64,000 nt of DNA from Betaproteobacteria bacterium. Lineage in GTDB: Bacteria > Pseudomonadota > Gammaproteobacteria > Burkholderiales > SG8-39. The position numbers and the translations under genes are program-made. The DNA lies in the NCBI GenBank assembly GCA_052386675.1, contig JBQTJX010000019.1, forward strand, positions 81,498-145,497, written 5' to 3'. This document shows positions 16,225-50,273 of the stretch, in pieces; position 1 is the first letter of the stretch, and each line of letters begins with the position of its first letter. The notes beneath the pieces were generated by a model that saw nothing but the letters and a program-made list of their open reading frames with translations, did not search any database and was not told where the DNA came from.

Positions 16225-16557
16225 CTAGCCGCCCGCCGGCAGTTCGATCACCTTCCCGCCCGCGCCGGGCACCAGGAAGCGCTTCCACAGCTTGTCTTCG
16301 GCGCGGATTTCGACCGGCCAGTGGCAGTGGCCGTCCACGCGCCGGGGTTCCTCCAGCAGCAGGATGTAGTGCACCGTGGTGCGGGTGCGCGACATCAGTT
16401 CGGACCAGGATTCCGTCTCCGGCAGGTACTTCACCCGCGCCACCAGGCGGCGCATGGGCGCCGAGCCTTCGTCGACCGGGAGTTCGCAGGCGGCCGCTGG
16501 CAGCGTGGCTGCGAGCAGGAGGGTCAGTCCTGCAGCGACGCGGCCGCGACGCGGCAT
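16225..16557 (-). CDS. hypothetical exported protein (possible lipoprotein)
   Basis: 110 aa with a signal peptide ending LPAAAC. Last gene of the boxR-C-B chain, overlapping the upstream ORF by 34 nt. No family recognised. Confidence 0.45.
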   Translation of the reverse strand: MPRRGRVAAGLTLLLAATLPAAACELPVDEGSAPMRRLVARVKYLPETESWSELMSRTRTTVHYILLLEEPRRVDGHCHWPVEIRAEDKLWKRFLVPGAGGKVIELPAGG

Positions 16558-16961
16558 GCCTCGATGCTCCGCAGGTGGGAATCGCGCATCCGGGTGAGCA
16601 GCGTCGCCGCTTCGGCGTCGGCGATGCGAGGCAGCACGGCGTTGAATTCGCGCACCGCCCACCCCAGGCCGCGCATCAGGAACTCGATGCGCGCACGGCG
16701 ACCGGCGACGGCGATGGCCTTGGCGTGGAACTCGCCCGTGGCATGGCTGTGCGGCACGCCGTCGCGGTCCAGCAGCCGGCCGAGGAGGGCGCAGTTGTGC
16801 GCTTCGTCGGCCTGCACCTTCCGCAGCGTGGTCCAGGCCGGGCCGTTGCGCTCGTGTTCGTCCATGAACGCGACCAGCGCCTTCGCTCCCGCGCGCTCGG
16901 TCTCGAGCATGCGATTGAGGAAGGCGGAGAGCTCCGCCTTACTGTAGGTGGACGTACTCAT
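16524..16961 (-). CDS. ferritin-like helical protein (DUF6306-like), function unknown
   Basis: 145 aa, all-helical, with LNRMLETERAGAKAL and a His/Glu-rich pattern. The start overlaps the boxB stop by 23 nt. Confidence 0.55.
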   Translation of the reverse strand: MSTSTYSKAELSAFLNRMLETERAGAKALVAFMDEHERNGPAWTTLRKVQADEAHNCALLGRLLDRDGVPHSHATGEFHAKAIAVAGRRARIEFLMRGLGWAVREFNAVLPRIADAEAATLLTRMRDSHLRSIEACRVAAASLQD

Positions 16962-18354
16962 GCTCCACGGGCAGGTTGTTGATGCCGCGATCCGGGGGCG
17001 CCACCCAGCCGGCCATCTTGCCCGGCTCTACCACGCGCTGCATCAGGCTGCGCACGAATGCGCGGTCGGCGTCCGACGGGATCCAGTCGTGCAGGCGCCG
17101 GTCGTATTCCTCGCGCGGGATGAGGCGGCCCTGGGGATCCACCGGATGACCCACCCAGGAGCCGATGGAACGGCGGAAGTGAGCTGAGGGCAGGTACAGG
17201 GCCAGCGCGCCATGTCCGGCGCGCTCGATGACGCGGTTCCAGCGCTTGAGGCCGATCTCGCAATCCTTCAGGTACGACTCGCGCATGACCTCATTCAGCG
17301 CGTTGAGCATGGGCACTTCCTGCTCGCCCTCGGGCGTGGCGAGCTTCAGCGTCGCGCTGCGCAGCACGTGGTCTTCGAACTGGCTCTCGTCCGGGCGGCC
17401 CTTGAGGCCGTTGGCGAAGTTGGCCGCGGAGTTCGAGGAAATCTCGTTGCCGAACAGGTCCAGCGACGAGGAGCACCAGAAGTTCAGGTACTTCTGCAGC
17501 AGCGGCAGGTCCACCGCGCCCGCCTTGCGGATCGCGGCCGGATCGTCCGTGCCCAGCGCTTTCATCACCTCCAGCGTGCGCTTCACCACGCGGCCGATGC
17601 CGGTCTCGCCTACGAACATGTGGTGCGCTTCCTCGGTGAGCATGAAGCGGCAGGTGCGCGACAGCGGGTCGAAGCCGGACTCGGCGAGGCTCTTCAGCTG
17701 GTACTTGCCGTCTCGGTCGGTGAAGTAGGTGAAGCAGTAGAACGACAGCCAGTCGGAAATCGGCTCGTTGAAGGTGGTGAGGATGCGCGGCTTGTCGGCA
17801 TCGCCCGAATGGCGCTGCAGCAGTTCCTCGGCCTCCTCGCGCCCGTCGCGGCCGAAGTAGGCGTGCAGCAGGTAGACCATGGCCCACAGGTGGCGGCCTT
17901 CCTCGACGTTGACCTGGAACAGGTTGCGCAGGTCGTACAGGGAAGGGCAGGTGTGGCCCAGCAGGCGCTGCTGCTCCACCGAGGCGGGCTCGGTGTCGCC
18001 CTGGGTGACGATGAGGCGGCGCAGGGTGGAGCGGTACTCGCCCGGCACCTGCTGCCAGGCGGGCTGGCCCATGGCATCGCCGAAGCCGATCCTGCGGTCG
18101 GCGACCGGGTCGGCGAGGAAGATGCCCCAGCGGTAGTCCGGCATCTTCACCGCGCCGTACTGCGCCCAGCCATCGGCGTCGACGGACACCGCGGTGCGCA
18201 GGTAGACGTCGGCGCCCTGGAAATCGGTCGGGCCCATGCCCTTCCACCAATCGATGAACTTCGGCTGCCAGTGCTCGAGCGCGCGTTGCAGCGTGCGGTC
18301 GGTGGCGAGGTGGACGTTGTTCGGGATCTTCTCGCTGTAGTTGATGCCGCTCAT
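16939..18354 (-). CDS. boxB: benzoyl-CoA 2,3-epoxidase, di-iron oxygenase subunit BoxB
   Basis: 471 aa, full-length BoxB-like (MSGINYSEKIPNNVHL...EEGRHLWAMVYLL...TEEAHHMFVGE). ATGA overlap with the boxC stop. Confidence 0.9.
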   Translation of the reverse strand: MSGINYSEKIPNNVHLATDRTLQRALEHWQPKFIDWWKGMGPTDFQGADVYLRTAVSVDADGWAQYGAVKMPDYRWGIFLADPVADRRIGFGDAMGQPAWQQVPGEYRSTLRRLIVTQGDTEPASVEQQRLLGHTCPSLYDLRNLFQVNVEEGRHLWAMVYLLHAYFGRDGREEAEELLQRHSGDADKPRILTTFNEPISDWLSFYCFTYFTDRDGKYQLKSLAESGFDPLSRTCRFMLTEEAHHMFVGETGIGRVVKRTLEVMKALGTDDPAAIRKAGAVDLPLLQKYLNFWCSSSLDLFGNEISSNSAANFANGLKGRPDESQFEDHVLRSATLKLATPEGEQEVPMLNALNEVMRESYLKDCEIGLKRWNRVIERAGHGALALYLPSAHFRRSIGSWVGHPVDPQGRLIPREEYDRRLHDWIPSDADRAFVRSLMQRVVEPGKMAGWVAPPDRGINNLPVEHEYVHLQ

Positions 18355-19922
18355 ACGCGCTCCCAGTTGAATTTCGCCTTCGAGCCGCTGCCGTAGACCT
18401 TCAGCGCGCCCTGCTCGCCGACCGCGTTGGGCCGGATGAAGATCCAGTTCTGCCACGCAGTGAGGCGCCCGAAGACGCGCGTGGCCATGTTCTCGCGGCC
18501 GGTGAAGCGCAGGCTCGCCTCCATGCCGGTGAGGGCGTCCGGCGAAAGGCTGGCGCGCTCCTCGCAGGCGATGCGCACCTCCTCCTCGAAGTCGAGGTCG
18601 TCGGGAGTGGAGGTGACGAGGCCGAGTTCCGAGGCCTGCTTCGCCGTGATGGGTGAGCCGACCGGAAGCTTGGGAAGGTCGCCGCAATAGTGCGCCGAGA
18701 TCCGGGTATCGCCGTTGACCATCGGGTAGGTGCCGAAGTTGAGGCTGGAGAAGGTAAGAGACGGACCGGGCTCCGCATCCAGCATGTAACTCCGGTCGGC
18801 GGCGAAAGCGAGCTCCGCGAGCGTTCCTGCGAAGCAGGATTCGACGTCGAAAATTGCAAACATCGATCGCGAGGAAACGTCCAATCTGGCAAGCGTGCGC
18901 CTCAGATACCCCACTGTTTCCCTGACCAGCCAGTGCGACGCGTTCTTCTCCAGCAGCGCATCCACCTTGAGCATCTCTTCTGCCTTGCCGCGCGTCTTCA
19001 GCAGCCACAGCCCGACCTCGAGGTGGTTGTGGCGCAAGTCGAGGATGGCGTCGTCCAGCTCGCGCGCGAGCTGCAGCGGGTACCAGCCGGCGCTCAGCTC
19101 GACTGCGTCGGGTGCCTTCGTCGGCGCATGCACCGTAATCTCAGCCGTGCGAGTCGCCGCATCGATCTTCACCTTCACGTACTCCCGCTTCAGTGGCGTC
19201 AGCGCCACCCCCGGGCCGCCGGGGCGGTCGGACTGCTTCGCCAGCTCCAGCGCGCGGCTCTTCACGAATTCGGCGAAGGCCTGCGGCTTGGCGACGTGGT
19301 CCACCAGCTTCCATTCCTTCGCCCGGTCGGCGCGCACGCCCTCGGCAGTGGTGCAGAACACGTCGGCGAGGTCGCGCCGCACCTTCCTCTTGTCCACCAG
19401 GCGGGTGAGGCCGCCGGTGCCCGGCAGCACGCCCAGCAGCGGCACCTCGGGCAGGCTGACGGTGGTGGAGCGGTCGTCCACGATCGCGATCTCGTCGCAG
19501 GCGAGCGCCATTTCATAGCCGCCGCCGGCGGTGGTGCCGTTCAGCGCAGCGAGGAACTTCAACCCGGAGTGGCGCGAGGAATCCTCGATGCCGTTGCGGG
19601 TCTCGTTGGTGAACTTGCAGAAGTTCACCTTCCACGCGTGCGTGGACAGGCCCAGCATGTAAATGTTGGCCCCGGAGCAGAACATGCGGCTCTTGCCGCT
19701 GGTGAGCACCACCGACTTCACCTCCGGGTGCTCGAAGCGGATGCGGTTGAGCGCATCGTGCAGCTCGATGTCCACGCCGAGGTCATAGGAGTTCAGCTTC
19801 AGCTTGTAGCCGGGGGCGAGGCCCTTGTCCTCGGCCACGTCCAGCGTCAGGGTGGCCACCGGCCCGTCGAAGGCGAGCTTCCAGTGGTGATAGTTCTCGG
19901 GCTTGGTCTCGAAGGCGATCAT
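18351..19922 (-). CDS. boxC: 2,3-epoxybenzoyl-CoA dihydrolase BoxC
   Basis: 523 aa crotonase-fold protein with a BoxC-like N-terminus (YHHWKLAFDGPVATLTLDV) and CSGANIYMLG. Confidence 0.9.
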   Translation of the reverse strand: MIAFETKPENYHHWKLAFDGPVATLTLDVAEDKGLAPGYKLKLNSYDLGVDIELHDALNRIRFEHPEVKSVVLTSGKSRMFCSGANIYMLGLSTHAWKVNFCKFTNETRNGIEDSSRHSGLKFLAALNGTTAGGGYEMALACDEIAIVDDRSTTVSLPEVPLLGVLPGTGGLTRLVDKRKVRRDLADVFCTTAEGVRADRAKEWKLVDHVAKPQAFAEFVKSRALELAKQSDRPGGPGVALTPLKREYVKVKIDAATRTAEITVHAPTKAPDAVELSAGWYPLQLARELDDAILDLRHNHLEVGLWLLKTRGKAEEMLKVDALLEKNASHWLVRETVGYLRRTLARLDVSSRSMFAIFDVESCFAGTLAELAFAADRSYMLDAEPGPSLTFSSLNFGTYPMVNGDTRISAHYCGDLPKLPVGSPITAKQASELGLVTSTPDDLDFEEEVRIACEERASLSPDALTGMEASLRFTGRENMATRVFGRLTAWQNWIFIRPNAVGEQGALKVYGSGSKAKFNWERV

Positions 19923-20707
19923 GGGTGTGCCGGCTGGCTTTCGGAAACGGTGCGTTTGAGTTCGGAGAAGCTCTGCTTCAGGGGCTTGCCGCTGGTGTCC
20001 ACCACGGCATCGGCGCGGGCGTAAAGCGCGTCGCGCTCGGCCAGCAGGCGGCGGATTTCGTCCAGCGCGGTGCTGCGTCCCTGCATCTTGCCCGCGAACG
20101 GCCGCAGGTCGCCTTGTTCCATGACCCGCTTCATGTGCTCCTCGGGCGAGGCCTTGAGCCAGACGCAGGTGCAGTTGTCGAGCAGCATGCGCCAGCTCTC
20201 GGGATCATTCACCAGGCTGCCGCCTGCCGCGACGACCGCGCGCGGATGCTGCTTCAGCACGCGGGCGAGGGCCTTGCGTTCGAAGCGGCGGAAGGCGTCC
20301 TGGCCGTACATGGAGAACACTTCGCCCAGTCCGGCGCCGGCTTCGCGCTCCACCTCGCGGTCCAGCTCGACGAACGGGATGTCCATTGCCAGGGCGAGCC
20401 TTGCGCCCAGGGTCGATTTGCCCGCGCCGCGAAGCCCGACCAGTGCGATGCGGCTGCGCTTGGGCTCGGCGTCATGCTCGCGCACCAGGATTTCCACCGG
20501 CACTTCCATGGCGTGCGCGATGCGGCGCAGGAGCAGGATGGAGACATTGCCTTCGCCCGCCTCCAGCTGCGCGAGGTAGCGCTCGGAAACCTCCGAGGCC
20601 GCCGCCAGCGCCTTGCGCGTCATGCGCTGTCCGGCGCGCCAGGCGCGCACCCGGTCGCCCAGCTGGGACAGGTAGAGCGATTCGGGACGGGGGTGAGGGG
20701 CGTTCAT
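19919..20707 (-). CDS. boxR: BoxR/BzdR-type regulator (XRE HTH + shikimate-kinase-like domain)
   Basis: N-terminal HTH (MTRKALAAASEVSERYLAQLEAGEGN) plus a P-loop GLRGAGKST shikimate-kinase-like domain. ATGA overlap with the boxC start. Confidence 0.85.
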   Translation of the reverse strand: MNAPHPRPESLYLSQLGDRVRAWRAGQRMTRKALAAASEVSERYLAQLEAGEGNVSILLLRRIAHAMEVPVEILVREHDAEPKRSRIALVGLRGAGKSTLGARLALAMDIPFVELDREVEREAGAGLGEVFSMYGQDAFRRFERKALARVLKQHPRAVVAAGGSLVNDPESWRMLLDNCTCVWLKASPEEHMKRVMEQGDLRPFAGKMQGRSTALDEIRRLLAERDALYARADAVVDTSGKPLKQSFSELKRTVSESQPAHP

Positions 20708-20749
20708 GCAATATGGTGCTTGACCGAAAGTTTAGGCTGCAATATAGTG
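20707..20749. promoter_or_regulatory. divergent boxR / ligase control region with two TGCAATAT(G/A)GTG direct repeats (candidate BoxR operators)
   Basis: TGCAATATGGTG at 20707-20718 and TGCAATATAGTG at 20738-20749, 31 nt start to start. The first reads TGCA-N6-TGCT. Confidence 0.4.
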
Positions 20750-20759
20750 TGTGTCAAGG

Positions 20760-22757
20760 ATGAGCGCCAGGATCCACATTCTCGTCGGCACCATGACCGG
20801 CACGGCCCAGCTCGTGGCGCAGGAGCTGGAACTCGCCTGGGACGACGGTGAGACCGTAGTCGCGACCCTGTTGATGGACAAGCTGGATGCCGCAGTGTTC
20901 GAGAAGCCCGGCGTGTTCCTGATCTGCACCTCCACCTACGGCCAGGGCGACGTGCCGGACAACGCCAAGGCCCTTTACGAAGACCTGAAGGCGAAGCGGC
21001 CGGACCTGTCCCGGGTGCGCTACGGCGTATTCGGCCTCGGCGACCGGACCTACGCCGAGACCTTCAATTTCGGCGGGAAGAAGTTCGACGAACTCCTGTC
21101 CGGACTCGGCGCGCAGCGCATCGGCGAGCGCGTGCAGCACGATGCCTCCTCCGGAACGCTGCCCGAGGAAGTCGCGGCGGAATGGGGCCAGGCCTGGCTG
21201 GAATTGGCCAGGGAAAATCAGGGACAGACCACGATTTTGGCCCGAGGGGGAGACATGGAAATACCGCGCCAGTACAACGCGGCGGTGGATTTGGTCGAGG
21301 GGAACCTCGCCGCCGGCCGCGCCGGCAAGACCGCCTACATCGACGACGCCGGCCAGTGCAGCTTTGGCGAGCTCGCCGAGCGCGTGAACCGCTTCGGCAA
21401 CCACCTGTTGTCGCTGGGCCTGCGGATGGAAGACCGCATCCTCATCGCGATGCACGATTCCATCGACTGGCCGGTCGCATTCCTTGGCGCTATCAAGGCC
21501 GGCATCGTGCCGATCGCCGTCAATACCTTGCTGACACCGAAGGACTACGAGTACATGCTCTCGGACAGCCGCGCCAAGGCGCTGCTGGTGTCGCCGGCGC
21601 TGGCGCCGCAGTTCGAGCCGTTCCTGGCCAAGCTGCCGTTCCTCAAGCACATCCTCAAGCCGCCGTTCGCCGAACTGCTCGCCAAGGCAAGTCCCGCGCT
21701 GGATCCGGCGCCGACCACGCGCGACGATCCCTGCTTCTGGCTCTACTCCTCGGGCTCAACCGGCATGCCCAAAGGTACGGTGCACGTGCATTCGAGCATG
21801 CGGCTGACCGCGGACCTGTATGCGAAGGGCGTCCTCGGGCTGGGCGATTCTGACGTCGTGTTTTCCGCGGCCAAGCTGTTCTTTGCCTACGGCCTGGGCA
21901 ACTCGCTGTCCTTCCCGCTCGCCGCCGGCGCGACCACCATCCTGATGGCGGAGCGCCCGACGCCGGACGCGGTGTTCAAGCGCCTGAGCGAGAAGAAGCC
22001 GACGCTGTTCTTCGGTGTGCCGACGCTATACGCCGCCATGCTGGCTTCGCCCGCCTTCCCGGGCAAGGACCAGCTGAATCTCAGGCAATGCATTTCCGCG
22101 GGAGAAGCGCTGCCACCCCAGATCTCCAGGACGTTCAAGGAGAAAGTCGGCGTCGAGATCCTGGACGGCATCGGCTCCACCGAGATGCTGCACATCTTCC
22201 TCTCCAACCGGCCTGGCGACCTGCGCTACGGCACCACCGGCAAGGCGGTTCCGGGCTACGAACTGAAACTGGTGGATGAGCAGGGCAACCTCGTGAAGCA
22301 GGGCGAGTTGGGCGAGCTCCTCATCAAGGGGCCCACGGCGGCCAACCTGTACTGGAACAACCGGGAAAAGAGCCGCTCGACCTTCGTTGGCGAGTGGGCG
22401 CGGTCCGGCGACAAGTACACGCAGGACGCCGATGGCTTCTATGCCTACGGCGGCCGCACCGACGACATGCTCAAGGTGTCCGGCATCTGGGTGTCGCCCG
22501 CCGAGGTCGAGGCGGCGCTGGTGTCGCACGAGGCGGTGCTCGAGGCCGCGGTGGTGGGGCACGAGGACGAGCAGAAGCTGGTGAAGCCCAAGGCCTTCGT
22601 GGTCCTCAAGCCGGGCCGCCAGGCCACGGTCGAGGACCTGCAGGCTTACGTCAAGAGCAAGCTCGCGCCCTACAAATACCCTCGCTGGATCGAGTTCGCG
22701 GCGGAACTGCCCAAGACGGCGACCGGGAAGATCCAGCGCTTCAAGCTGCGCGGCTAG
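20760..22757 (+). CDS. flavodoxin (MioC-like) fused in frame to benzoate/4-hydroxybenzoate-CoA ligase
   Basis: Single ORF with no stop. The flavodoxin part has ILVGTMTGTA, CTSTYGQGD and FGLGDRTY. The ligase part starts at internal ATG 21255 (SD GGGGGAGA) and has YSSGSTGMPKG and TGKIQRFKLR. The upstream start is GTG 20751 or ATG 20760. Confidence 0.65.
   Translation: MSARIHILVGTMTGTAQLVAQELELAWDDGETVVATLLMDKLDAAVFEKPGVFLICTSTYGQGDVPDNAKALYEDLKAKRPDLSRVRYGVFGLGDRTYAETFNFGGKKFDELLSGLGAQRIGERVQHDASSGTLPEEVAAEWGQAWLELARENQGQTTILARGGDMEIPRQYNAAVDLVEGNLAAGRAGKTAYIDDAGQCSFGELAERVNRFGNHLLSLGLRMEDRILIAMHDSIDWPVAFLGAIKAGIVPIAVNTLLTPKDYEYMLSDSRAKALLVSPALAPQFEPFLAKLPFLKHILKPPFAELLAKASPALDPAPTTRDDPCFWLYSSGSTGMPKGTVHVHSSMRLTADLYAKGVLGLGDSDVVFSAAKLFFAYGLGNSLSFPLAAGATTILMAERPTPDAVFKRLSEKKPTLFFGVPTLYAAMLASPAFPGKDQLNLRQCISAGEALPPQISRTFKEKVGVEILDGIGSTEMLHIFLSNRPGDLRYGTTGKAVPGYELKLVDEQGNLVKQGELGELLIKGPTAANLYWNNREKSRSTFVGEWARSGDKYTQDADGFYAYGGRTDDMLKVSGIWVSPAEVEAALVSHEAVLEAAVVGHEDEQKLVKPKAFVVLKPGRQATVEDLQAYVKSKLAPYKYPRWIEFAAELPKTATGKIQRFKLRG
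21211..21240. repeat. half-copy of the GGGAAAATCAGGGAC(G/A)GACCACG hairpin repeat, inside the fusion linker
   Basis: GGGAAAATCAGGGACAGACCACGATTTTGG versus 50213-50241 GGGAAAATCAGGGACGGACCACGTTTTCC. They differ by one mismatch and one indel before the tails diverge. Confidence 0.7.
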
Positions 22758-29238: not shown

Positions 29239-29283
29239 GGCGCCATTGTAGTAAAGTGCGATTTGTTTGGGGCCCCAACAATC

Positions 29284-29778
29284 ATGACTGCCATTCCTGA
29301 GCGCGTGCACCTGACGATGCAGGTCAACGGCGAATCCGCGCCGGTATCCTTCGCGCCCTACAAGACCCTGCTCGAAGTGCTGCGCGAGGACCTCGGCCTC
29401 ACCGGCACCAAGCACGGCTGCGAGCTGGGCGAGTGCGGTGCCTGCACCGTGCTGGTGGACGGCCAGCCGGTGCTCTCGTGCCTCGCGCTGGCGCTGGAGT
29501 GCGGCGGCCGCGCCATCGAGACCATCGAGGGCGTGCAGCGGGGGCCCGAGCTCCACCCGCTGCAGGCGGCCTTCGCCGACTGCGGCGGCTCGCAGTGCGG
29601 CTACTGCACCCCGGGCGTGATCATGACTGCCAAAGCGCTGCTGGCGGGCAATCCGGCGCCGACCCGCGACGAGATCCGCGAGGCGACTGCCGGCAACCTG
29701 TGCCGCTGCACCGGCTACCAGCAGATCACAGAGGCCATCGAGTCCGCCGCAACCATGCTGCGCGGTGAGCGGCCATGA
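29284..29778 (+). CDS. (2Fe-2S)-binding small subunit of a molybdenum hydroxylase, HcrC/CoxS-like
   Basis: 164 aa with both cluster motifs, [13 protein letters not shown] and CGYCTPG...NLCRCTGY. Confidence 0.85.
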
Positions 29779-32231
29779 ACGAAACGAAAAAGCGGCTGGA
29801 TGTCATCGGCAAGCCGCGCCGCCGGGTGGACGGACGTTCCAAGGTCACCGGCGCCCTGCGCTTCGCCGACGACCTGTCGCTGCCGCGCATGCTGCACGCC
29901 AAGCTGCTGCGCTCGCCGCACCCCCATGCCATCGTCGAAGCGGTGGATGTGGAGAAGGCCAGGCGCCATCCTGGGGTGAAGCTGGTGCTGACCGGGCAGG
30001 ATTTCCCGGTTCCGTTCGGCATCATGCCGGTTTCGGTGGATGAGTATCCGCTGGCGCGCGAACGCGTGCGCTATGTCGGCGACCCGGTGGCCGCGGTGAT
30101 TGCGCAGGACGAGCAAACCGCCACGGCGGCGCTTGACCTGATCGAGGTGCGCTACCAGCTGCTCAAGCCGGTGTCCGGCCCGCAGGAAGGGCTGGAGAAC
30201 CCCGAGCCGCGCATCCACGACTACGGCGAGCAGGGCAACATCCACCGCAACCAGTCCTACGAGTTCGGCGATACGGCCGAGGCACTGGGGAACTCCGACC
30301 ATGTCTTCGAAGACTTGTTCTTCTACGAAGGCAACACCCACCTGCCGATGGAGCAGCAGGCCTCGCTTGCGTTCCTGGACCAGGACGGCAAGCTGCAGAT
30401 TTCCTCGTCGACGCAGAACCCCCACTACCTGCACCGGCAACTCGCGCGCGTGCTGCAGATTCCCGAGTCGCGCATCCGCGTCGTCGCCACGCCCAATGGC
30501 GGCGGCTTCGGCGGCAAGTGCGATCCCGGCGGACATGAGTTCGTGGTCAGCAAGGCCGCGCTGGTGCTGGGCCGCCCGGTGAAAATCGGCCTGACGCGCG
30601 AGGAAGTGTTCTACGTCCATCGCGGCCGCCACCCGGTGCTGATGAAAATGAAGACCGGGGTGACCAAGGAGGGCAAGCTCACCGGCATGCACCTGCAGAC
30701 GCTGCTCGATGGCGGCGGCTACGGTTCGCACGGGCCGGCGAGCACCTTCTACACCGGCGTACTGACGCCGGTCACCTACCACTACCCGCGCTTCAAGTTC
30801 GAGGCCTGCCGGGTGTTCACGAACAAGCCGGCCTGCGGTCCCAAGCGCGGCCACGGCACGCCGCAGCCGCGCTTCGGCCAGGAAGTGCAGCTGGACAAGA
30901 TCGCCGAGCGCCTCGGCATGGATCCGCTGGAATTGCGCCTGAAGAACCTCACCCGGGAAGGCGACCTCACCGCGAGCTGGTTGCGCGTGGGGACGACCGG
31001 CCTCAAGGACTGCCTGGACAAGGTCGCGGACCTGTCAGGCTGGAAGTCGAAGCACGGCAAGCTGCCCGGGGGAAGGGGTGTCGGCCTCGCCTGCAGCACC
31101 TACATGTGCGGCGCGGGCGTGGCCATCTACTGGAACAAAATGCCGCACTCGGGTGTGCAGGTGCTGCTGGACCGCTCCGGCAGCGTCATCGTGTATTGCG
31201 GCGCCACCGAGATCGGCCAGGGCTCGGACGACGTGCTGGCCGCGATCGTCGCCGAGACCCTCGGCGTGGACACCGGATCGGTGCGCGTCGTGACCGGCGA
31301 CACCGGCATCACCCCGGTGGACCTGGGTTCGTACTCCAGCCGCGTCACCATCATGGCGGGCAACGCGGCGGTGCAGGCCGCCGAGCGGCTGCGCGCCAGC
31401 GTCGCCGCGGCGGTGTGCGAGACCCTGGGCACGCTGCCCGATCGCGTGGTGTTCTCGCAGGGAAAGGTGTTCGCCGCAGACAACGCTGGCGCCGGCATGA
31501 GCTTCGTCGAGGCCGTGGCGATGGCCGAGGCCGCGCTTGGCACCTTGTCGGCAGTCGGATCCTATTCGCCCCCGAAGGCGCCCGGCCGGTACAAGGGCGC
31601 AGGCGTCGGTCCATCGCCCGCCTACAGCTTCAGCGCCTGCGTGGTCGAGGCCGAGGTGGACGAGCGCACCGGCTGGATCCATGTGCCGAAAATCTGGATC
31701 GCGCACGACATCGGCCGCGCGCTCAACCCGGTGCTGGCGCGCGGGCAGGTGATCGGCGGCGTGTACATGGGCCTGTCGGAGGCGATGATGGAAGAGCAGA
31801 CCTTCCGCCGCCTGCCGGAGAAACTCTCCGGCGCGCTGGTGCATCGCGCCCCCTCCATGCTCGACTACAAGAGCCTCACCGCACTCGACATGCCGGAAGT
31901 GGAAGTCGCGCTCATCGAGGATCCGGACCCCAACTGCCCCTACGGTGCGAAGGAAGTGGGGCAGGGCCCGCTGCTGCCCGTGATGCCGGCACTGGCAAAC
32001 GCCATATTCGACGCCGTGGGCGTGCGCATCGACGAGATCCCGATCACCCCGGACAAGGTGCTGCGCGCGCTGGAGGCGAAGGCCGCCGGCAAGGCGCCGC
32101 GCGTCGGGCCGGAGTCCTACCCCGCGGTGCCCTATCCGGAACCCACCTTCGTGCTGCCGCCCTGGGAAGACGGCGACGGCAACGAGTCCCGCAAGGGGGG
32201 CGAGAAGCGTGCTGCGACTGCCGTGGTTTGA
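29775..32231 (+). CDS. molybdopterin-binding large subunit of a xanthine-dehydrogenase-family enzyme, HcrA-like
   Basis: 818 aa with aldehyde oxidase/xanthine dehydrogenase a/b-hammerhead and MoCo-binding blocks (GGGFGGK, AHDIGRALNP, GAKEVGQGP). ATGA overlap with the small subunit. Confidence 0.85.
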   Translation: MNETKKRLDVIGKPRRRVDGRSKVTGALRFADDLSLPRMLHAKLLRSPHPHAIVEAVDVEKARRHPGVKLVLTGQDFPVPFGIMPVSVDEYPLARERVRYVGDPVAAVIAQDEQTATAALDLIEVRYQLLKPVSGPQEGLENPEPRIHDYGEQGNIHRNQSYEFGDTAEALGNSDHVFEDLFFYEGNTHLPMEQQASLAFLDQDGKLQISSSTQNPHYLHRQLARVLQIPESRIRVVATPNGGGFGGKCDPGGHEFVVSKAALVLGRPVKIGLTREEVFYVHRGRHPVLMKMKTGVTKEGKLTGMHLQTLLDGGGYGSHGPASTFYTGVLTPVTYHYPRFKFEACRVFTNKPACGPKRGHGTPQPRFGQEVQLDKIAERLGMDPLELRLKNLTREGDLTASWLRVGTTGLKDCLDKVADLSGWKSKHGKLPGGRGVGLACSTYMCGAGVAIYWNKMPHSGVQVLLDRSGSVIVYCGATEIGQGSDDVLAAIVAETLGVDTGSVRVVTGDTGITPVDLGSYSSRVTIMAGNAAVQAAERLRASVAAAVCETLGTLPDRVVFSQGKVFAADNAGAGMSFVEAVAMAEAALGTLSAVGSYSPPKAPGRYKGAGVGPSPAYSFSACVVEAEVDERTGWIHVPKIWIAHDIGRALNPVLARGQVIGGVYMGLSEAMMEEQTFRRLPEKLSGALVHRAPSMLDYKSLTALDMPEVEVALIEDPDPNCPYGAKEVGQGPLLPVMPALANAIFDAVGVRIDEIPITPDKVLRALEAKAAGKAPRVGPESYPAVPYPEPTFVLPPWEDGDGNESRKGGEKRAATAVV

Positions 32232-33213
32232 GTACCGCAGCCCGCGCACGGTCGCGGAGGCGGTGAAGATCCTCGCGGGAGAAGGTCCGGCGGCGATGCT
32301 GGTCGCCGGCGGCACCGACCTGCTGCCCAACATGAAGCGGCGCCACCAGTCGCCGAAGGTGCTGGTTTCGCTGCGCGCGGTGGATGAACTGCGCAAGCTG
32401 AACGGCAGCTACGGTGCCGGCCTCACGCTGGCGGAGGTCGCGGCGCATCCGGGAACCCCGGCCGCGCTGCGCCACGCGGCCGGTCAGGTGGCCACGGCGC
32501 AGATCCGGAACATGGGCACGCTGGGCGGAAACCTGTGCCTTGATACGCGCTGCACCTACTACAACCAGAGCTACGAGTGGCGCAAGGCGATCGACTTCTG
32601 CCTGAAGAAGGACGGCAGCGTGTGCTGGGTCGCCACCGCGAGCAAGCGCTGCGTGGCGGCGTCCTCGACCGATACGGCGCCGGCATTGATCGCGCTGGAT
32701 GCGAAGGTGAGGCTGGCTGGCGCTGGTGGTGAGCGCGAGATTCCGGTCGAGGCGCTCTACAACAATGACGGCATCGACTACCTGTCGCGCAAGCCGGATG
32801 AAGTTCTCACGGGAGTCGTCATTCCCGAGGGCTGGAAGAGCACCTACTGGAAGCTGCGCCGGCGCGGCTCGTTTGATTTCCCCATCCTCGGCGTGGCCGC
32901 GGCGGTGCGCATGGACGGCGATGTCGTCGCCGAGGCGCGCGTCGCGCTGGGCGCGGTGGCCTCCCGTCCGTTCCTGGTCGGGAAGGCGGGAGATTTCCTG
33001 AAGGGGAAGCGGCTCACGGACGAGGCGATCGCCGAGGCTGCTTCACTGGTCGCCAATCGCGCCAAGCCCATGGACAACACGGACATGGACCTCTACTGGC
33101 GCAAGGAAGTGGCGGATGACTTCGCGGGGTATGCGCTGCGGGAGCTGCGCGGAGATGACATGAGCGCGGTGCGGCTCAGGACGGCGCGTTACCTGCCTGA
33201 TCCAAAAATGTAA
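32209..33213 (+). CDS. FAD-binding medium subunit with Cys-rich insertion, HcrB-like
   Basis: 334 aa with FAD_binding_5 (AGGTDLLPNMK, GTLGGNL) followed by the insertion CLDTRCTYYNQSYEWRKAIDFCLKKDGSVCWVATASKRC. GTG start with SD AAGGGGGG. The stop TAA lies in palindrome copy 2. Confidence 0.8.
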   Translation: MLRLPWFEYRSPRTVAEAVKILAGEGPAAMLVAGGTDLLPNMKRRHQSPKVLVSLRAVDELRKLNGSYGAGLTLAEVAAHPGTPAALRHAAGQVATAQIRNMGTLGGNLCLDTRCTYYNQSYEWRKAIDFCLKKDGSVCWVATASKRCVAASSTDTAPALIALDAKVRLAGAGGEREIPVEALYNNDGIDYLSRKPDEVLTGVVIPEGWKSTYWKLRRRGSFDFPILGVAAAVRMDGDVVAEARVALGAVASRPFLVGKAGDFLKGKRLTDEAIAEAASLVANRAKPMDNTDMDLYWRKEVADDFAGYALRELRGDDMSAVRLRTARYLPDPKM

Positions 33214-33227: not shown

Positions 33228-33416
33228 CGACCGCGCTCCAGGGGCCGTCTCACGCCCGGTCCGGCGGTCTTCGAGGATGAGCGCGATTGCCTGGGCGAGG
33301 CTTTTCTTGGCTTGCTGCTTCGTGCGGCCTTGGCCATTTGCCCCCGGGACCTCAGGGCAGTAGGCGACGAACCAATTGCCATCGCGCTCGATGGTGGCCG
33401 TGAACTCGTTGTGCAT
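33222..33416 (-). CDS. HicB-family antitoxin-like protein (no hicA partner seen)
   Basis: 64 aa; MHNEFTATIERDGNWFVAYCPEVPGANGQGRTKQQAKKSLAQAI matches the short HicB fold signature. SD GGAGGGAG lies upstream. Confidence 0.65.
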   Translation of the reverse strand: MHNEFTATIERDGNWFVAYCPEVPGANGQGRTKQQAKKSLAQAIALILEDRRTGRETAPGARSM

Positions 33417-33533
33417 GGGGACAGAACTCCCTCCAACTTTGGTGTTGTCTAACATCCGCAGCCACCCGCGCGCGTAGCATGGGAGATCACGCGCGGCGCA
33501 GTGCCTGCGTGCGCGTTGGAGTGGGCTGCGCTG

Positions 33534-33731
33534 TTAAGCCGCAACCTGTTCGTAGGAGAACTGCGGGATGCCAGCACGCTGGGAAGCGTGCTCGACCGTG
33601 ATGGCGCATACGTTGCCCTGAGCATCAATATCGAGGACGGTATTCTCATCGAGGTCGCGCGTCTCGGCGACGGGCGCTTCCTTGAACTCGATGAGCAATG
33701 TGTCGGTATCCTTGAAGTATCGGATTCTCAT
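33534..33731 (-). CDS. DUF2283 domain-containing protein (putative antitoxin)
   Basis: 65 aa, MRIRYFKDTDTLLIEFKEAP...DAQGNVCAITVEHAS. ATGA overlap with the upstream DUF4258 gene. Confidence 0.7.
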   Translation of the reverse strand: MRIRYFKDTDTLLIEFKEAPVAETRDLDENTVLDIDAQGNVCAITVEHASQRAGIPQFSYEQVAA

Positions 33732-33964
33732 GGCGCGAACCTTCGGTCGAAGAACGCATTGTGGACCGTTTCGCCGTCCGGGAGAAGTACCACCCGGAGA
33801 TAGCGATTCTCCGCCTCCGGGATTTGCACCCACCTCTGGATACGGCCGTCGGCTTGTACCTTTTCCCTGATGGGCGACCGGATGGCCCGTTCGATCCATT
33901 CATCGCCGATCCCCGCCCTGTCCGGGCGACTGCGCAGTGCATCGAAATAGCGGGTCGACTTCAT
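33728..33964 (-). CDS. DUF4258 domain-containing protein (putative toxin)
   Basis: 78 aa with WIERAIRSPIREKVQADGRIQRW...RYLRVVLLPDGETVHNAFFDR, typical of the DUF4258 partner of DUF2283. Confidence 0.7.
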   Translation of the reverse strand: MKSTRYFDALRSRPDRAGIGDEWIERAIRSPIREKVQADGRIQRWVQIPEAENRYLRVVLLPDGETVHNAFFDRRFAP

Positions 33965-34075
33965 CTGACAGATCGTCTTGGTTGGGGCTTACGTTGCGGT
34001 GTGGGGCGCGCCGCACGCGCGGTGCTCGGGCTCGCACTGACGCTTGCTCGCGGCGCGTCCCGCACCAGCGCGAAG

Positions 34076-34708
34076 TTAGATGTCACCTATGCGCCCCCTC
34101 AAGCTTGACGCGATTCCGTGAAGCGCTGTGCGCTCCCTCGAGAACGGTCGCGTGGACCAGTTAAGGTAGTAGCCGGGGCCTGAACTGCTTGACGCAAAGG
34201 ACGACAGTTCCGCTTTGGCCGACAGATCAGACAGCTCACCTGATGCTGAACAGAAAGAGAGAATGGCTGAGTCTTGCCGCGGATAGTCGCTTGGCCAAAG
34301 CGGACTTTCTGGTCGAAACACATACGTCATCTGACGAAGGGTCATTGTTGATACTGGAAACACCGTTGTGATGCTCGTCAGCCGCTTGGCGTCGAGGCGT
34401 TTTAGAAATGACTCGGTATTGATCTCGGAAACGACCAAAGCTCGATTTTCCGCGATGAAGGCGAGCGAGGGAAGCTCGTCGATGTAGAACACGGTGCCTT
34501 GCACCCGTTTGGCCTCACAGAAGGCCTTAGCCGTATCCATTGTGGAGTGCATGCACCCTGGCGAGTAGCGGGTAATCCAAGTGCTCCACCACGCGTTTCT
34601 GCCGGTTGTGACGTAGTAGAGCTTTACAGCCTTTACGTCACGGACCAGATACCGGAGGTCGTCGTCCTGCGCATGGGATGCGGCAATGAGTTCCATGGTG
34701 ACATCCAA
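34076..34708 (-). CDS. hypothetical protein (no family recognised)
   Basis: 210-aa ORF in the AT-richer islet. It is the only long ORF in this stretch, and its codon usage differs from the flanking core. Confidence 0.4.
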   Translation of the reverse strand: MDVTMELIAASHAQDDDLRYLVRDVKAVKLYYVTTGRNAWWSTWITRYSPGCMHSTMDTAKAFCEAKRVQGTVFYIDELPSLAFIAENRALVVSEINTESFLKRLDAKRLTSITTVFPVSTMTLRQMTYVFRPESPLWPSDYPRQDSAILSFCSASGELSDLSAKAELSSFASSSSGPGYYLNWSTRPFSRERTALHGIASSLRGRIGDI

Positions 34709-34797
34709 CGTCTGGCTTCAGGCGCGCGGCGCTCTTGACGCGTCGTCCTGAAAGCCGTTGTTCGGTGGCACACGCGCTCGAAGGTACCCAGAGGCGA

Positions 34798-35775
34798 TCA
34801 TTCGATCACCATATCGGCGCGCAACAATAGCTCCTTCGAAATCGTTAGGCCGAGCTGCTTAGCCGTCGCTCTATTTACTGTCAGTTCAAAGATCGTAGGC
34901 TGCTCGACTGGCAAATCACTCGGCTTTGCCCCCTTAAGTATCTTGTCCACGTAGGTTGCCGCCCGCCGCGTGAATGCGCCATAGTTCTGGCCGTAAGCGA
35001 GCAACGCGCCTCTTTCCGCATAGATCCGCGTGGTCGCAATCGACGCGATCCGGTGCTTGAGTGCTGTTCGCGCAATCAGTGTGGCGTGGGTGTTAAATAG
35101 CGCACTCGGTAAAACGATTGCTGCGGTGACCTGTTCCTTCGCCAACAATGCAAACGAGCTCTCGATATCCTCCAGCCTCGGAGCGTAAGCTACCGGAGCC
35201 TTGCCCCCGAGCTGTTGCGCTGCGCTCTGGATGTTCTTGACGTGCCATTGAACCGTCGGCTGATTGGGATCAGCAAGAACACCAACTTGGCTCCGTGGGG
35301 CAACAAGCTTTGCCAATTCGAGCCACTTGGCAGAGGTATCGGTCGTAGCGAGGGACAGCCCTGTGATGTTTCCGCCTGGTCGCGCAAGAGAGGCGATGAA
35401 CCCGCTCGAGACCGGATCTCCAGCGTACGACATGACAATTGGAATCGTGGAAGTTGCCTGTTTGGCCGCCCGGACTGCGGCTGTACCCGCGCCAACAATC
35501 ACGTCAACCTCTCTATTGACTAGGTCGGCGGCTTGCCCAGCAAGACGGTCGACGTGACCTTCGGCGAATCGCCACTCAATGACGAGATTCTTTCCAACTT
35601 CATAGCCAAGTTCGCGCATGCCGTCGGGGAATTGTTCAAAGTAGGGTAGGCGTGTGACTGGCGCGATAAACCCGACGCGCCAGACCTTGGATCTTGGCTG
35701 AGCAAGCGCAATCCGGGGCAAAGTGAGCAACGCACCCACGGCCAATAAGAAATGCCTGCGTATTGACTGGTTCAT
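34798..35775 (-). CDS. ABC transporter substrate-binding protein, ABC_sub_bind (PF04392-like) family, orphan
   Basis: 325 aa with a signal peptide, VWRVGFIAP start and GGNITGLS block. No permease or ATPase is adjacent. Confidence 0.8.
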   Translation of the reverse strand: MNQSIRRHFLLAVGALLTLPRIALAQPRSKVWRVGFIAPVTRLPYFEQFPDGMRELGYEVGKNLVIEWRFAEGHVDRLAGQAADLVNREVDVIVGAGTAAVRAAKQATSTIPIVMSYAGDPVSSGFIASLARPGGNITGLSLATTDTSAKWLELAKLVAPRSQVGVLADPNQPTVQWHVKNIQSAAQQLGGKAPVAYAPRLEDIESSFALLAKEQVTAAIVLPSALFNTHATLIARTALKHRIASIATTRIYAERGALLAYGQNYGAFTRRAATYVDKILKGAKPSDLPVEQPTIFELTVNRATAKQLGLTISKELLLRADMVIE

Positions 35776-35947
35776 ATTCGCTCTATGGAAAGGCTACCAA
35801 CTAATATAGCTCTGAGTTTCTGCGATGCATCGCTGCAGCTATTTGGGGCACTGCGCTCTTTCGCATCAGTATCGTGCCATCGAACGTCCACGTTCACGGC
35901 GCGGGCCGAGCGCGCAGCACGAGGACCGTCGGCCGCGCAACGCGTTG

Positions 35948-36643
35948 TTAGATGCCATTCTTCTGCCTCTCGAGTTCTGCGTCGTTATTCTTGAGCCAAG
36001 CCTCAAGAGCCTCAAACTGTTCTGACCAGACCTTATCGTACTCGTGCTCGAACACGGCATACACGAAGCTCATGGCTGGTTCCTGCTCTGGCCCGAACAC
36101 TTGCACCCAGCGATTTGAGAATGACGTTTCATATTTTTCGGGGTCGCTTGAGGAGTAGGTATACAAAACCCCGTCAAAGTTTGGGTGGACGCTTTCACTG
36201 AGTCGGTCGTACATGGATTGAAGGCCGGGATGCTCCTTTTCAGCCTTTTCCAGGATCTTGAGAACGTGAATCGCGGTGTGTGATGCACCCGGTGTGCGTG
36301 AACCCAGAAGCATCTGTTTGGTGAGTGCGTCGAAATCAAAAAACGAGTATGCCCCTGCCACTACAGCGGCCATTCGCTGATTCAGGAATATCAGTAGCGC
36401 AAGAGTTTCAATGCCAGCACGGAGCAATGCGCGGGCACCGAGGAGATGTTGGTGCTCCGTTAGAAGAAGTGTCTGTTGCGCGAGATCGTGCATCCGCCAG
36501 AACAGCGTCTCGCGTAGCACCATGCCTCTGAACGGAGCTTTCCACTTATGCGCTACGGGGCAACGAGCCAGGAGTCCAGCTACCGGCACGTTCTGACATC
36601 GAGATTGAGACCAGCGCGCGATCCGTTCCCCTGGGCTTTCCAT
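35948..36643 (-). CDS. hypothetical all-helical protein (possible HEPN-like Rx5H motif)
   Basis: 231 aa from ATG 36643 (alternatives 36691 and 36811). Contains RLSESVH. The N-terminal extension to 36811 runs through palindrome copy 3 and is unlikely to be real. Confidence 0.45.
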   Translation of the reverse strand: MESPGERIARWSQSRCQNVPVAGLLARCPVAHKWKAPFRGMVLRETLFWRMHDLAQQTLLLTEHQHLLGARALLRAGIETLALLIFLNQRMAAVVAGAYSFFDFDALTKQMLLGSRTPGASHTAIHVLKILEKAEKEHPGLQSMYDRLSESVHPNFDGVLYTYSSSDPEKYETSFSNRWVQVFGPEQEPAMSFVYAVFEHEYDKVWSEQFEALEAWLKNNDAELERQKNGI

Positions 36644-36766
36644 GGCATCTAACTTGATGTTTAGGCAGCACACCGCCGCCAAGAAAAGCATATACCTCTG
36701 GACGCAAACATCCAATCCCAGATACTTGAGTTCGGCCAACAGATCGGGTGCTTGCCTAGGACGCAA

Positions 36767-36786
36767 ATGTAACCGAGCGGTTACAT
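36767..36786. repeat. 20-bp palindrome ATGTAACCGAGCGGTTACAT (copy 3 of 4, one central mismatch), right edge of the islet
   Basis: Read directly. Lies 21 nt downstream of the dinB stop. Confidence 0.95.
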
Positions 36787-36807
36787 CCTGGCTCCTCCCA
36801 GGCCTCC

Positions 36808-37857
36808 TCACCCGCGGTCCGGCACCAACCCGTGCACCCCCGCTCCCAGCAGCCGCACCGGCCGCTTCCCCGCATCCGTCCGCTCCAGCAACGCCACGGC
36901 GCGCGAGGCGATGTCGTCCGCGTCACGCCCGGGCATGGTCGAGGTATGGCTGCGCGTGACCAGCGAAAAATCGTCGTAGCGCACCTTGATGGTCACGGTG
37001 CGCGCCACCAGCCGCTTGCGCTCCAGCCACGCAGCGGTCTTGCGCGCGAGTCGCTCCATCTCGGCGCGGACCTCCCGCAGTTCCGTAAGGTCCTCCGGAT
37101 AGGTGGTTTCGTTGCTGCCGGACTTGGAAGGACGGTCGGGCGTGACGCGGCGCGGATCGTCGCCGCGGGAGAGCCGAAGCAGCCAGTCGGCCTGGTTGCC
37201 GACTGCGCCGCGCAACTGCGCCGGATCCGCGGTCCGGACCTGCACCAGTTTCTCGATGCCGATTCGCCGCAGCTTGCCCGCGGTGACCGGCCCCACGCCC
37301 CAGAGCGCCTCCACCGGCAGTTTCTGCAGGAAGGACTCGACCCGCTCGGGCGCGATCACGGTCAGGCCGTCGGGCTTCTTCCAGCCGGAGGCAATCTTGG
37401 CGAGGAACTTGTTGGGCGCGACGCCGGCGGAGGCGGTGAGCCGGAGCTGGTCGCGGATCTGCTGCTTGAGCCGGCGGGCGACTTCCATGGCGAGGGGCTC
37501 GCCCCAGCTGTTTTCGGTGACATCCAGGTAGGCCTCGTCCAGGGACAGCGGCTCCACCAGGGGCGTGCAGGCGCGGAACAGGGCCAGCACCTGCTGCGAG
37601 ACGGCGCGGTAGCGGGTGAAGTCCGGCCGGACCATGGCCAGCTCCGGGCACAGCCGCAGCGCACGGGCCATGGGCATGGCGGATCGCACGCCGAAGGCGC
37701 GCGCCTCGTAGCTGCAGGCGGCGACCACGCCGCGGGACTCGGGCGAGCCGCCCACCGCGAGCGGCCGCCCGCGCAGCGAAGGATCGTCGCGCTGCTCCAC
37801 GGAGGCGTAGAACGCGTCCATGTCGATGTGGAGGATCCGGCGCAAGGTGTCGGCCAC
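36808..37857 (-). CDS. dinB: DNA polymerase IV
   Basis: 349 aa with ILHIDMDAFYASVE, SLDEAYLDV and little-finger domain pattern. GTG start. Confidence 0.9.
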   Translation of the reverse strand: MADTLRRILHIDMDAFYASVEQRDDPSLRGRPLAVGGSPESRGVVAACSYEARAFGVRSAMPMARALRLCPELAMVRPDFTRYRAVSQQVLALFRACTPLVEPLSLDEAYLDVTENSWGEPLAMEVARRLKQQIRDQLRLTASAGVAPNKFLAKIASGWKKPDGLTVIAPERVESFLQKLPVEALWGVGPVTAGKLRRIGIEKLVQVRTADPAQLRGAVGNQADWLLRLSRGDDPRRVTPDRPSKSGSNETTYPEDLTELREVRAEMERLARKTAAWLERKRLVARTVTIKVRYDDFSLVTRSHTSTMPGRDADDIASRAVALLERTDAGKRPVRLLGAGVHGLVPDRG

Positions 37858-50200: not shown

Positions 50201-50216
50201 CCGGGGGTAATCGGGA

Positions 50217-50273
50217 AAATCAGGGACGGACCACGTTTTCCCGCACCTGGAAAACGTGGTCCGTCCCTGATTT
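50217..50273. terminator. 25-bp perfect-stem hairpin between convergent genes (bidirectional terminator / repeat element)
   Basis: AAATCAGGGACGGACCACGTTTTCC, loop cgcacct, then GGAAAACGTGGTCCGTCCCTGATTT. The last nucleotide overlaps the GS-like stop codon. Confidence 0.7.

Follow-up and report, generated by a model that had tools for sequence, protein, structure and literature searches.

A described system close to the locus studied here is the classical box system for aerobic degradation of benzoyl-CoA, comprising the benzoyl-CoA 2,3-epoxidase BoxAB, BoxC, BoxR and the benzoate-CoA ligase BclA, of Azoarcus evansii and Burkholderia xenovorans; a survey of the BoxR regulon in cultured Betaproteobacteria describes boxCBA and does not mention a flavodoxin (PMC6449761). 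We analysed a stretch of 64,000 nt from a Betaproteobacteria bacterium of the order Burkholderiales (contig JBQTJX010000019.1; the whole stretch is hereafter the window), in which a flavodoxin and a benzoate-CoA ligase are encoded beside box genes by a single open reading frame (ORF) at 20751-22757 (+). The BoxB, BoxC, BoxR-like and BclA proteins of the window are clear orthologues of the classical ones and the divergent, BoxR-controlled layout is the same (PMC6449761), but the window and the typical related locus lack BoxA, have a lower-scoring variant BoxB, and carry the flavodoxin and a DUF6306 protein instead. Closer still are the flavodoxin-ligase (fld-bclA) gene pairs of uncultured Burkholderiales and other Betaproteobacteria (loci L001, L003 and L004), with the same synteny of DUF6306-boxB-boxC-boxR divergent from fld-bclA, proteins that are 90-94% identical, and the same promoter, spacer half-site, Shine-Dalgarno (SD) sequence and ligase start. 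In every one of these relatives the flavodoxin (151-176 aa) is followed by a stop codon, whereas in the window it is not.

Other described systems resemble parts of the arrangement. Cindoxin, which comes from a catabolic gene cluster, is the dedicated partner of P450cin and passes electrons to that oxygenase; it is deposited as a separate redox flavodoxin (4OXX), and its role is analogous to the one we propose below for the window flavodoxin. Unlike cindoxin, YqcA and MioC, the window flavodoxin has a diiron epoxidase rather than a P450 as its proposed partner and is fused to an adenylate-forming enzyme. CPR, CysJ, P450 BM3 and NOS, which are sequence relatives of the window flavodoxin, likewise have a flavin mononucleotide (FMN) domain tethered through its C-terminus, but their fused partner is the redox partner and their architecture is ancient and conserved, whereas the window has a non-redox ligase in that place, and has it once. 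As for dual starts, infB, clpB and cheA are in-frame dual-start genes with long and short isoforms, and like the window ORF they have an internal SD sequence and ATG in the frame of a longer upstream ORF. Their arrangement is conserved and the isoforms have been demonstrated, whereas that of the window would be a stop-loss accident.

According to the ORF listing, the fused ORF runs without a stop for 668 codons from a GTG; the ATG at 20760 is conserved and is probably the physiological start. The flavodoxin module (20760-21212, +) is a short flavodoxin like MioC, YqcA and cindoxin, with a Flavodoxin_1 match (PF00258) at residues 10-145 scoring 91.5 bits against a gathering score of 25. The FMN phosphate loop T-x-T-G-x-T is present as GTMTGTA (residues 13-19) and is invariant across orthologues, and at positions at least 90% conserved in 55 orthologues the module shows no departure. 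The closest solved structures are cindoxin 4OXX (82 bits), flavodoxin 2M6R (79 bits) and MioC 2HNA (78 bits). The module falls below the NCBIfam equivalog cutoffs for MioC (104.3 against 158) and for PRK08105 (YqcA; 117.8 against 160), and it represents a subfamily related to, but separate from, these two.

The ligase module (21255-22757, +), of BclA type, carries AMP-binding (residues 187-535, 270.6 bits) and AMP-binding_C (residues 585-660, 77.5 bits) domains in the Pfam scan of the fused protein. The NCBIfam model for benzoate-CoA ligase, TIGR02262, matched the fusion with 772.7 bits and the 500-aa module with 774 (cutoff 375.25), covering model positions 1-506 of 508 and thus a full-length ligase. 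The P-loop-like adenylation motif YSSGSTGxPKG and, within TGKIQRFKLR, the C-terminal catalytic lysine were found in the translation, and the closest solved relative is the benzoate-CoA ligase of Burkholderia xenovorans (2V7B, 609 bits). The module is predicted to activate benzoate to benzoyl-CoA. The flavodoxin module is intact and both modules are complete. An earlier note on this DNA, made from the letters and an ORF listing, had described a single uninterrupted 668-codon ORF joining a complete flavodoxin to a complete ligase; the ORF listing, Pfam and NCBIfam all bore this out, and every motif that it quoted was found in the translation.

For this ORF, the public protein collection holds only a 500-aa ligase that begins at ATG 21255 (P0001). 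The flavodoxin module has never been called as a protein, as no entry that is 100% identical occurs among its 120 best homologues, and the annotation of the source genome would therefore appear to lack the flavodoxin of the cluster.

The connector between the modules comprises 14 residues (155-168, ENQGQTTILARGGD) and is encoded at 21213-21254 (+). Positions 21213-21233 match GAAAATCAGGGACGGACCACG in 20 of 21 bases, with one mismatch, and the only other matches in the window, where shuffled sequences gave an expectation of zero, are the two arms (50215-50235 and 50255-50275) of a hairpin. This palindromic repeat, at 50213-50277 between convergent genes, is the sole complete copy in the window and has a perfect 25-bp stem (-46.6 kcal/mol, z = -8.4). 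The connector originates from a repeat arm. Its remainder is former fld-bclA spacer, of which 17 nt are left in frame with the ligase, and the stretch that spans the junction in the fused protein reads …LELARENQGQTTILAR…. The GC content at third codon positions (GC3) is ~57% in the connector by hand count and 89% in the ORF as a whole, a low value that fits non-coding DNA recruited recently. No stop codon occurs at the junction in any of the three forward frames. The near-identity of the connector to one arm of the hairpin at 50213 had been pointed out by the earlier note; the connector exists as it said, but its coordinates and length (21211-21240, 13 codons) needed to be corrected to those given above.

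Comparison with the related loci points to how the modules came to be joined. In L002, L005, L006, L078 and L148 the flavodoxin gene carries at its 3´ end a complete palindrome composed of GAAAATCAGGGACAGACCACGTTTTC, a loop and the reverse complement, and these palindromes fold at -37 to -50 kcal/mol. The flavodoxin ORF of the full-hairpin relatives enters the left arm and ends at a stop codon in the loop (…AKENQGQTTFSES; …ENQGQTTFSES). The left arm only is found in the window and in its nearest relatives L001, L003 and L004, whose ligases are 91-94% identical. Since the one-arm state is common to these three, the deletion is a shared one that predates the fusion, rather than an assembly collapse specific to the window. 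L001 and L004 have a TAA just before the arm and L003 has a TAA just after it (…MDNQGQTAI*), whereas the window has neither, and its junction departs from all three by several substitutions and a length difference of 2-4 nt.

These comparisons suggest an ancestor whose flavodoxin gene had, at its 3´ end, a palindrome resembling repetitive extragenic palindromic (REP) elements, with the gene reading into the left arm and stopping in the loop. In the subclade of the window, the loop and right arm would then have been lost, and the relatives would have kept or gained a stop. In the window itself no stop is left and, with the 17-nt spacer in frame by chance, translation would read through into the ligase. 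We favour, with reasonable though far from complete confidence, the view that two co-transcribed, BoxR-controlled genes of the box cluster were fused by read-through recently and in this lineage only. Judged from the junctions, the fusion appears to result from a stop codon lost recently and to be neither an established architecture nor a new enzyme family; a benefit is not implied, and we infer that the fusion is neutral. The proposal in the earlier note that a formerly intergenic repeat is now translated was right as to the derivation of the connector from the arm, but in relatives with the full hairpin the left arm is already part of the flavodoxin ORF, and new translation would be confined to the last 6-7 codons of the connector.

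The palindrome, (G)AAAATCAGGGACRGACCACG(T/A)TTTC, is dispersed, with copies in at least 120 contigs of soil, lake and sludge metagenomes. Among the metagenome arms, 81 are solitary and 51 are paired as hairpins, and only two copies lie at a fld-ligase junction. With many dispersed, palindromic and mostly extragenic copies, the element is REP-like; the window contributes one hairpin and one half-site. An Rfam scan of the window gave no match at gathering score, which leaves the hairpin outside curated RNA families. As in REP-like elements, there is a stem of ~25 bp, a variable loop and an intergenic location, and hairpins and solitary arms both occur. The difference is that the left arm is routinely translated as a flavodoxin tail, which in several flavodoxins that stand alone reads ENQGQTT(F/I)S.

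We looked for the fusion elsewhere at both the protein and the DNA level, since gene callers can mask such fusions, as they do for the window. A scan of 185,579 species-representative genomes gave 73 loci, in 48 of which the ligase is immediately preceded by a flavodoxin gene; all 48 have a stop codon between the two. The same was true of two metagenome junctions (L078 and L148) and of three loci ascertained through DUF6306 (L197-L199). None of the 53 orthologous junctions is thus fused, and the window is the sole uninterrupted case of 54; the comparison of orthologous loci for a stop after the flavodoxin, which the earlier note had called for, found that stop in 53 of 53. When the whole protein was used as the query, the best 120 matches (83-94% identical) were all ligases of 497-523 aa without a flavodoxin domain; when the flavodoxin only was used, each of the best 120 matches (79-89% identical) was a separate protein of 151-176 aa. 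With a query centred on the junction (residues 1-330) against 1.84 billion representatives, the best 150 matches contained no genuine fusion, and altogether no genuine flavodoxin-ligase fusion was found among the best matches of the searches of 5.8 billion and 1.84 billion proteins. The suggestion that a Flavodoxin_1 plus AMP-binding architecture is unfamiliar is in line with these results, as the two domains occur together in none of the best-matching proteins (top 120, top 120 and top 150). In these searches, which could have missed very distant fusions, the fusion is a unique, single-lineage event.

Candidates from the junction-centred search were rejected as fusions. In P0125, P0217, P0220 and P0248 the ORF call is out of frame, frameshifted or over-extended, in DNA of high GC content, while P0126 consists of flavodoxin repeats and has no AMP-binding domain. 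The first four represent an upstream flavodoxin gene misread in stop-poor high-GC DNA and resemble N-terminally extended ligases.

Upstream of the fused ORF, a promoter scan identified a sigma-70-like sequence, TTGACC-N17-TATAGT (20720-20748, +; 10 of 12 matches), as a putative promoter. It is the sole plus-strand promoter-like site, and no terminator-like site was found by the scan between the modules. Direct repeats, TGCAATATGGTG (20707-20718) and TGCAATATAGTG (20738-20749), flank it and resemble the TGCA-repeat operators of BoxR and BzdR, a known operator type (PMC6449761). A TTGAC…TGCAATATA box is kept in ~18 orthologous loci in the form TTGAC-N17-TATA(G/T)T, and the orthologues also share the TGCAATAT(G/A)GTG repeats that flank it. 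In the ~18 loci the flavodoxin ATG lies 2-12 nt past the -10 box without an SD sequence, and given this closeness the mRNA probably carries no leader, or only a very short one. The promoter of the fused ORF overlaps with a divergent promoter-like site that would serve boxR (20757-20729).

Ahead of the internal ATG at 21255 lies the SD sequence GAGGGGGAG at 21244-21252 (together 21244-21257, +), and the strong SD reported earlier at this position was thus found as described. This SD and ATG are conserved, and the equivalent of ATG 21255 is the ligase start in all relatives; the same start was used by the public gene call. In some relatives the last and first codons of the two genes share 4 nt (ATGA), in others the genes lie 14-70 nt apart, and the overlap indicates translational coupling, the genes normally being co-translated neighbours. 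In relatives that have no SD sequence ahead of the ligase (L015, L016, L020, L055, L067, L005 and L006) we observed a conserved GTACAAT box ~7 nt upstream of the ligase start, which could be an internal promoter for a leaderless ligase mRNA.

In the window, one mRNA would be made from the BoxR-type promoter at 20720-20748, and ribosomes that start at ATG 20760 would have to yield a flavodoxin-connector-BclA protein of ~665 aa (~73 kDa). With its internal SD and in-frame start codon the ORF has the form of a dual-start gene, and the SD and ATG at 21244-21257 could additionally start a free 500-aa ligase. Probably the fused ~73 kDa protein and some free ligase are both made.

The genes on the opposite strand form a box cluster. 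The boxR-like gene (19919-20707, -), divergent from the fused ORF, encodes a regulator with an HTH-XRE domain and a shikimate-kinase-like domain (PRK08154, 339 bits), and is followed by boxC (18351-19922, -; TIGR03222, 838.6 bits against a cutoff of 712.3) and a variant boxB (16939-18354, -; TIGR03225, 759.5 bits against a cutoff of 499.1). BoxB and BoxC thus both score above their equivalog cutoffs, and the variant BoxB matches the Azoarcus evansii BoxB structure 3PER with 654 bits. The usual position of boxA is taken by a DUF6306 gene (16524-16961, -; Pfam PF19825). No BoxA was found in the 64-kb window, and the 4Fe-4S motif CxxCxxCxxxC occurs in none of its ORFs, in agreement with the description of this operon in the earlier note as a box operon without a reductase.

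Related loci contain two classes of BoxB. The classical class scores ~900 bits with TIGR03225 and adjoins BoxA, whereas the class of the window scores ~757-760 bits and is followed by DUF6306. BoxA itself (TIGR03224, 617-634 bits) was found in L035 and L058 only, and most related loci lack it; L048 and L068 have a BoxA-like ORF with two 4Fe-4S motifs that was not confirmed as BoxA. L058 has a classical boxA-boxB-boxC-boxR cluster and a ligase, without a flavodoxin. L035, L048 and L068 combine both BoxB classes, an ORF of the BoxA type with two 4Fe-4S motifs (confirmed as BoxA only in L035) and a flavodoxin. Both BoxB classes, but no BoxA, occur in L009, L012, L013, L042 and L047. In loci of the window type, the variant BoxB is the only one and co-occurs with DUF6306 and the flavodoxin; this layout, boxR-boxC-variant boxB-DUF6306 divergent from the flavodoxin, was noted in the window and among the related loci L001-L076 and L197-L199. 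The gene orders in relatives form a series, boxC-boxB-boxA-boxB´ (L035), boxC-boxB-boxB´-DUF6306 (L009 and others) and boxC-boxB´-DUF6306 (window), which suggests a stepwise replacement of BoxAB.

The position of the flavodoxin gene relative to its neighbours was informative as to its function. Six loci have unrelated genes (TerC, LysR regulators, ankyrin, AsmA and a two-component system) between the flavodoxin and the ligase, and in these as in all others the flavodoxin gene stays next to boxR. Loci with a ligase and hcrA and without box genes have no flavodoxin. As the flavodoxin tracks boxR and is absent from these box-less loci, it is tied to the box genes and not to the ligase or to the Hcr-like Mo-hydroxylase. 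For the same reason we rejected the Hcr-like reductase as the main recipient of its electrons, a link suggested by the earlier note. The HcrCAB-like Mo-hydroxylase is encoded at 29281-33213 (+) by genes for a Fer2 protein (165 aa), an alpha subunit (818 aa) and an FAD-binding beta subunit (334 aa), the latter two both below the equivalog cutoffs for 4-hydroxybenzoyl-CoA reductase (772.9 against 994.55 and 285.5 against 404.55). It appears to be a related Mo-hydroxylase of uncertain substrate. HcrCAB-like genes lie near the ligase in many relatives.

The DUF6306 protein was modelled with AlphaFold2 as a ferritin-like four-helix bundle (pLDDT 94.5), and Foldseek matched it to ferritin-like, PA2169, Rv2844 and Dps folds with TMq of 0.7-0.8 and weak E-values. 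Its invariant residues in the alignment (E20, E22, E53, H55, H73, H129, C57 and C136) suggest a metal site. Homologues are often labelled 'nitronate monooxygenase' by JGI, which looks like a mis-transfer of annotation.

On the basis of gene content, the flavodoxin is most likely an FMN electron carrier to the diiron epoxidase BoxB, in place of the iron-sulfur domain of BoxA, and would be reduced by a reductase encoded elsewhere. A bolder reading, which we regard as possible but doubtful, takes the flavodoxin to be the physiological donor of a widespread BoxA-independent epoxidase composed of the variant BoxB, the ferritin-like DUF6306 protein and the flavodoxin; the fusion would then be a Rosetta-stone pointer to this partnership and might itself be a working tethered donor. 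Our literature search on boxB or benzoate-CoA ligase with flavodoxin, and on DUF6306, found nothing relevant.

Several observations weigh against the reading of the locus given above, that is, a read-through fusion whose flavodoxin serves BoxB. The fusion of Flavodoxin_1 and AMP-binding is a singleton in the data examined, and its exact junction has no match in metagenome contigs. The public gene call begins at the internal ATG and leaves the flavodoxin out. As to the role, neither a BoxA-type nor an FNR-type (flavodoxin) reductase was found among the window ORFs scanned, and these genomes could encode BoxA at another site. The argument for electron transfer to BoxB is one of gene co-occurrence, in loci that were mostly ascertained through the flavodoxin, the ligase or DUF6306.

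The first two of these observations are also what would be expected if the fusion were a sequencing or assembly artefact, the true genome having two genes with a stop between them and the consensus at 21200-21260 being wrong through strain mixing or errors in the repeat; the window probably derives from a draft contig or one of the metagenome-assembled type, and repeats are error-prone. Several features of the sequence speak against a simple error, however. As the junction is free of stops in all three forward frames, a single indel would not restore the normal end of the flavodoxin and would give a long aberrant tail instead. The substitutions and the length change relative to L003, L004 and L001 form a pattern of divergence rather than of error, and three independent assemblies likewise have one arm only. 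The flanking genes all have their full length, and the flavodoxin sequence keeps every well-conserved position. We therefore consider an artefact unlikely, and the sequence of the fusion is probably real.

If the DNA is real, it could still be that only the ligase matters, the stop loss being slightly deleterious and due to be purged or compensated, and the flavodoxin being disabled or destabilised in the fusion, or the fused product being cleaved or degraded. The choice of the internal start with its strong SD by the gene caller fits this account, as do the lack of an SD at the upstream start and the absence of any further occurrence from which selection for the fusion could be deduced. However, the sole promoter-like site lies upstream of the flavodoxin, the flavodoxin module shows no decay, and the stand-alone flavodoxins of all relatives use an SD-less start as well. 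Moreover, FMN domains of this type are generally known to function with a C-terminal tether in CPR, CysJ and P450 BM3, which are among the sequence matches. We regard this account as improbable, and retain the read-through fusion as the preferred reading. An adaptive fusion, in which an electron carrier tethered to the ligase would form a complex with BoxB and deliver benzoyl-CoA and electrons together (channelling), is very improbable: in relatives the flavodoxin and ligase genes show tight linkage and in some cases translational coupling, and from the known pathway both products act immediately upstream of BoxB (PMC6449761), but the fusion is a singleton with non-adapted codon usage in its connector, and the six split loci indicate that physical coupling is not required.

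The components of the locus, a flavodoxin, a benzoate-CoA ligase and gene rearrangement mediated by a REP element, are of known kinds. What the fusion offers is an evolutionary snapshot, in which the decay of a stop-bearing repeat hairpin would weld two operon neighbours into one protein, after which automatic annotation drops the upstream gene and records only the 500-aa ligase. The context of the box cluster is a better lead than the fusion itself: dozens of uncultured Betaproteobacteria have a box cluster without BoxA and with a dedicated flavodoxin, a distinct class of BoxB and a ferritin-like DUF6306 protein. If the flavodoxin does feed BoxB, this would be an undescribed alternative to the textbook two-component BoxAB electron delivery, and the use of boxA and boxB as markers of aerobic benzoyl-CoA degradation would be affected.

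Elsewhere in the window, we noted an island of lower GC content at ~33300-36800 (53-60%, compared with 67% for the window), whose ORFs lack the high GC3 of the rest. It adjoins an IMS (DinB/ImuB-type) polymerase gene at 36808-37857 (-), and may be acquired DNA.

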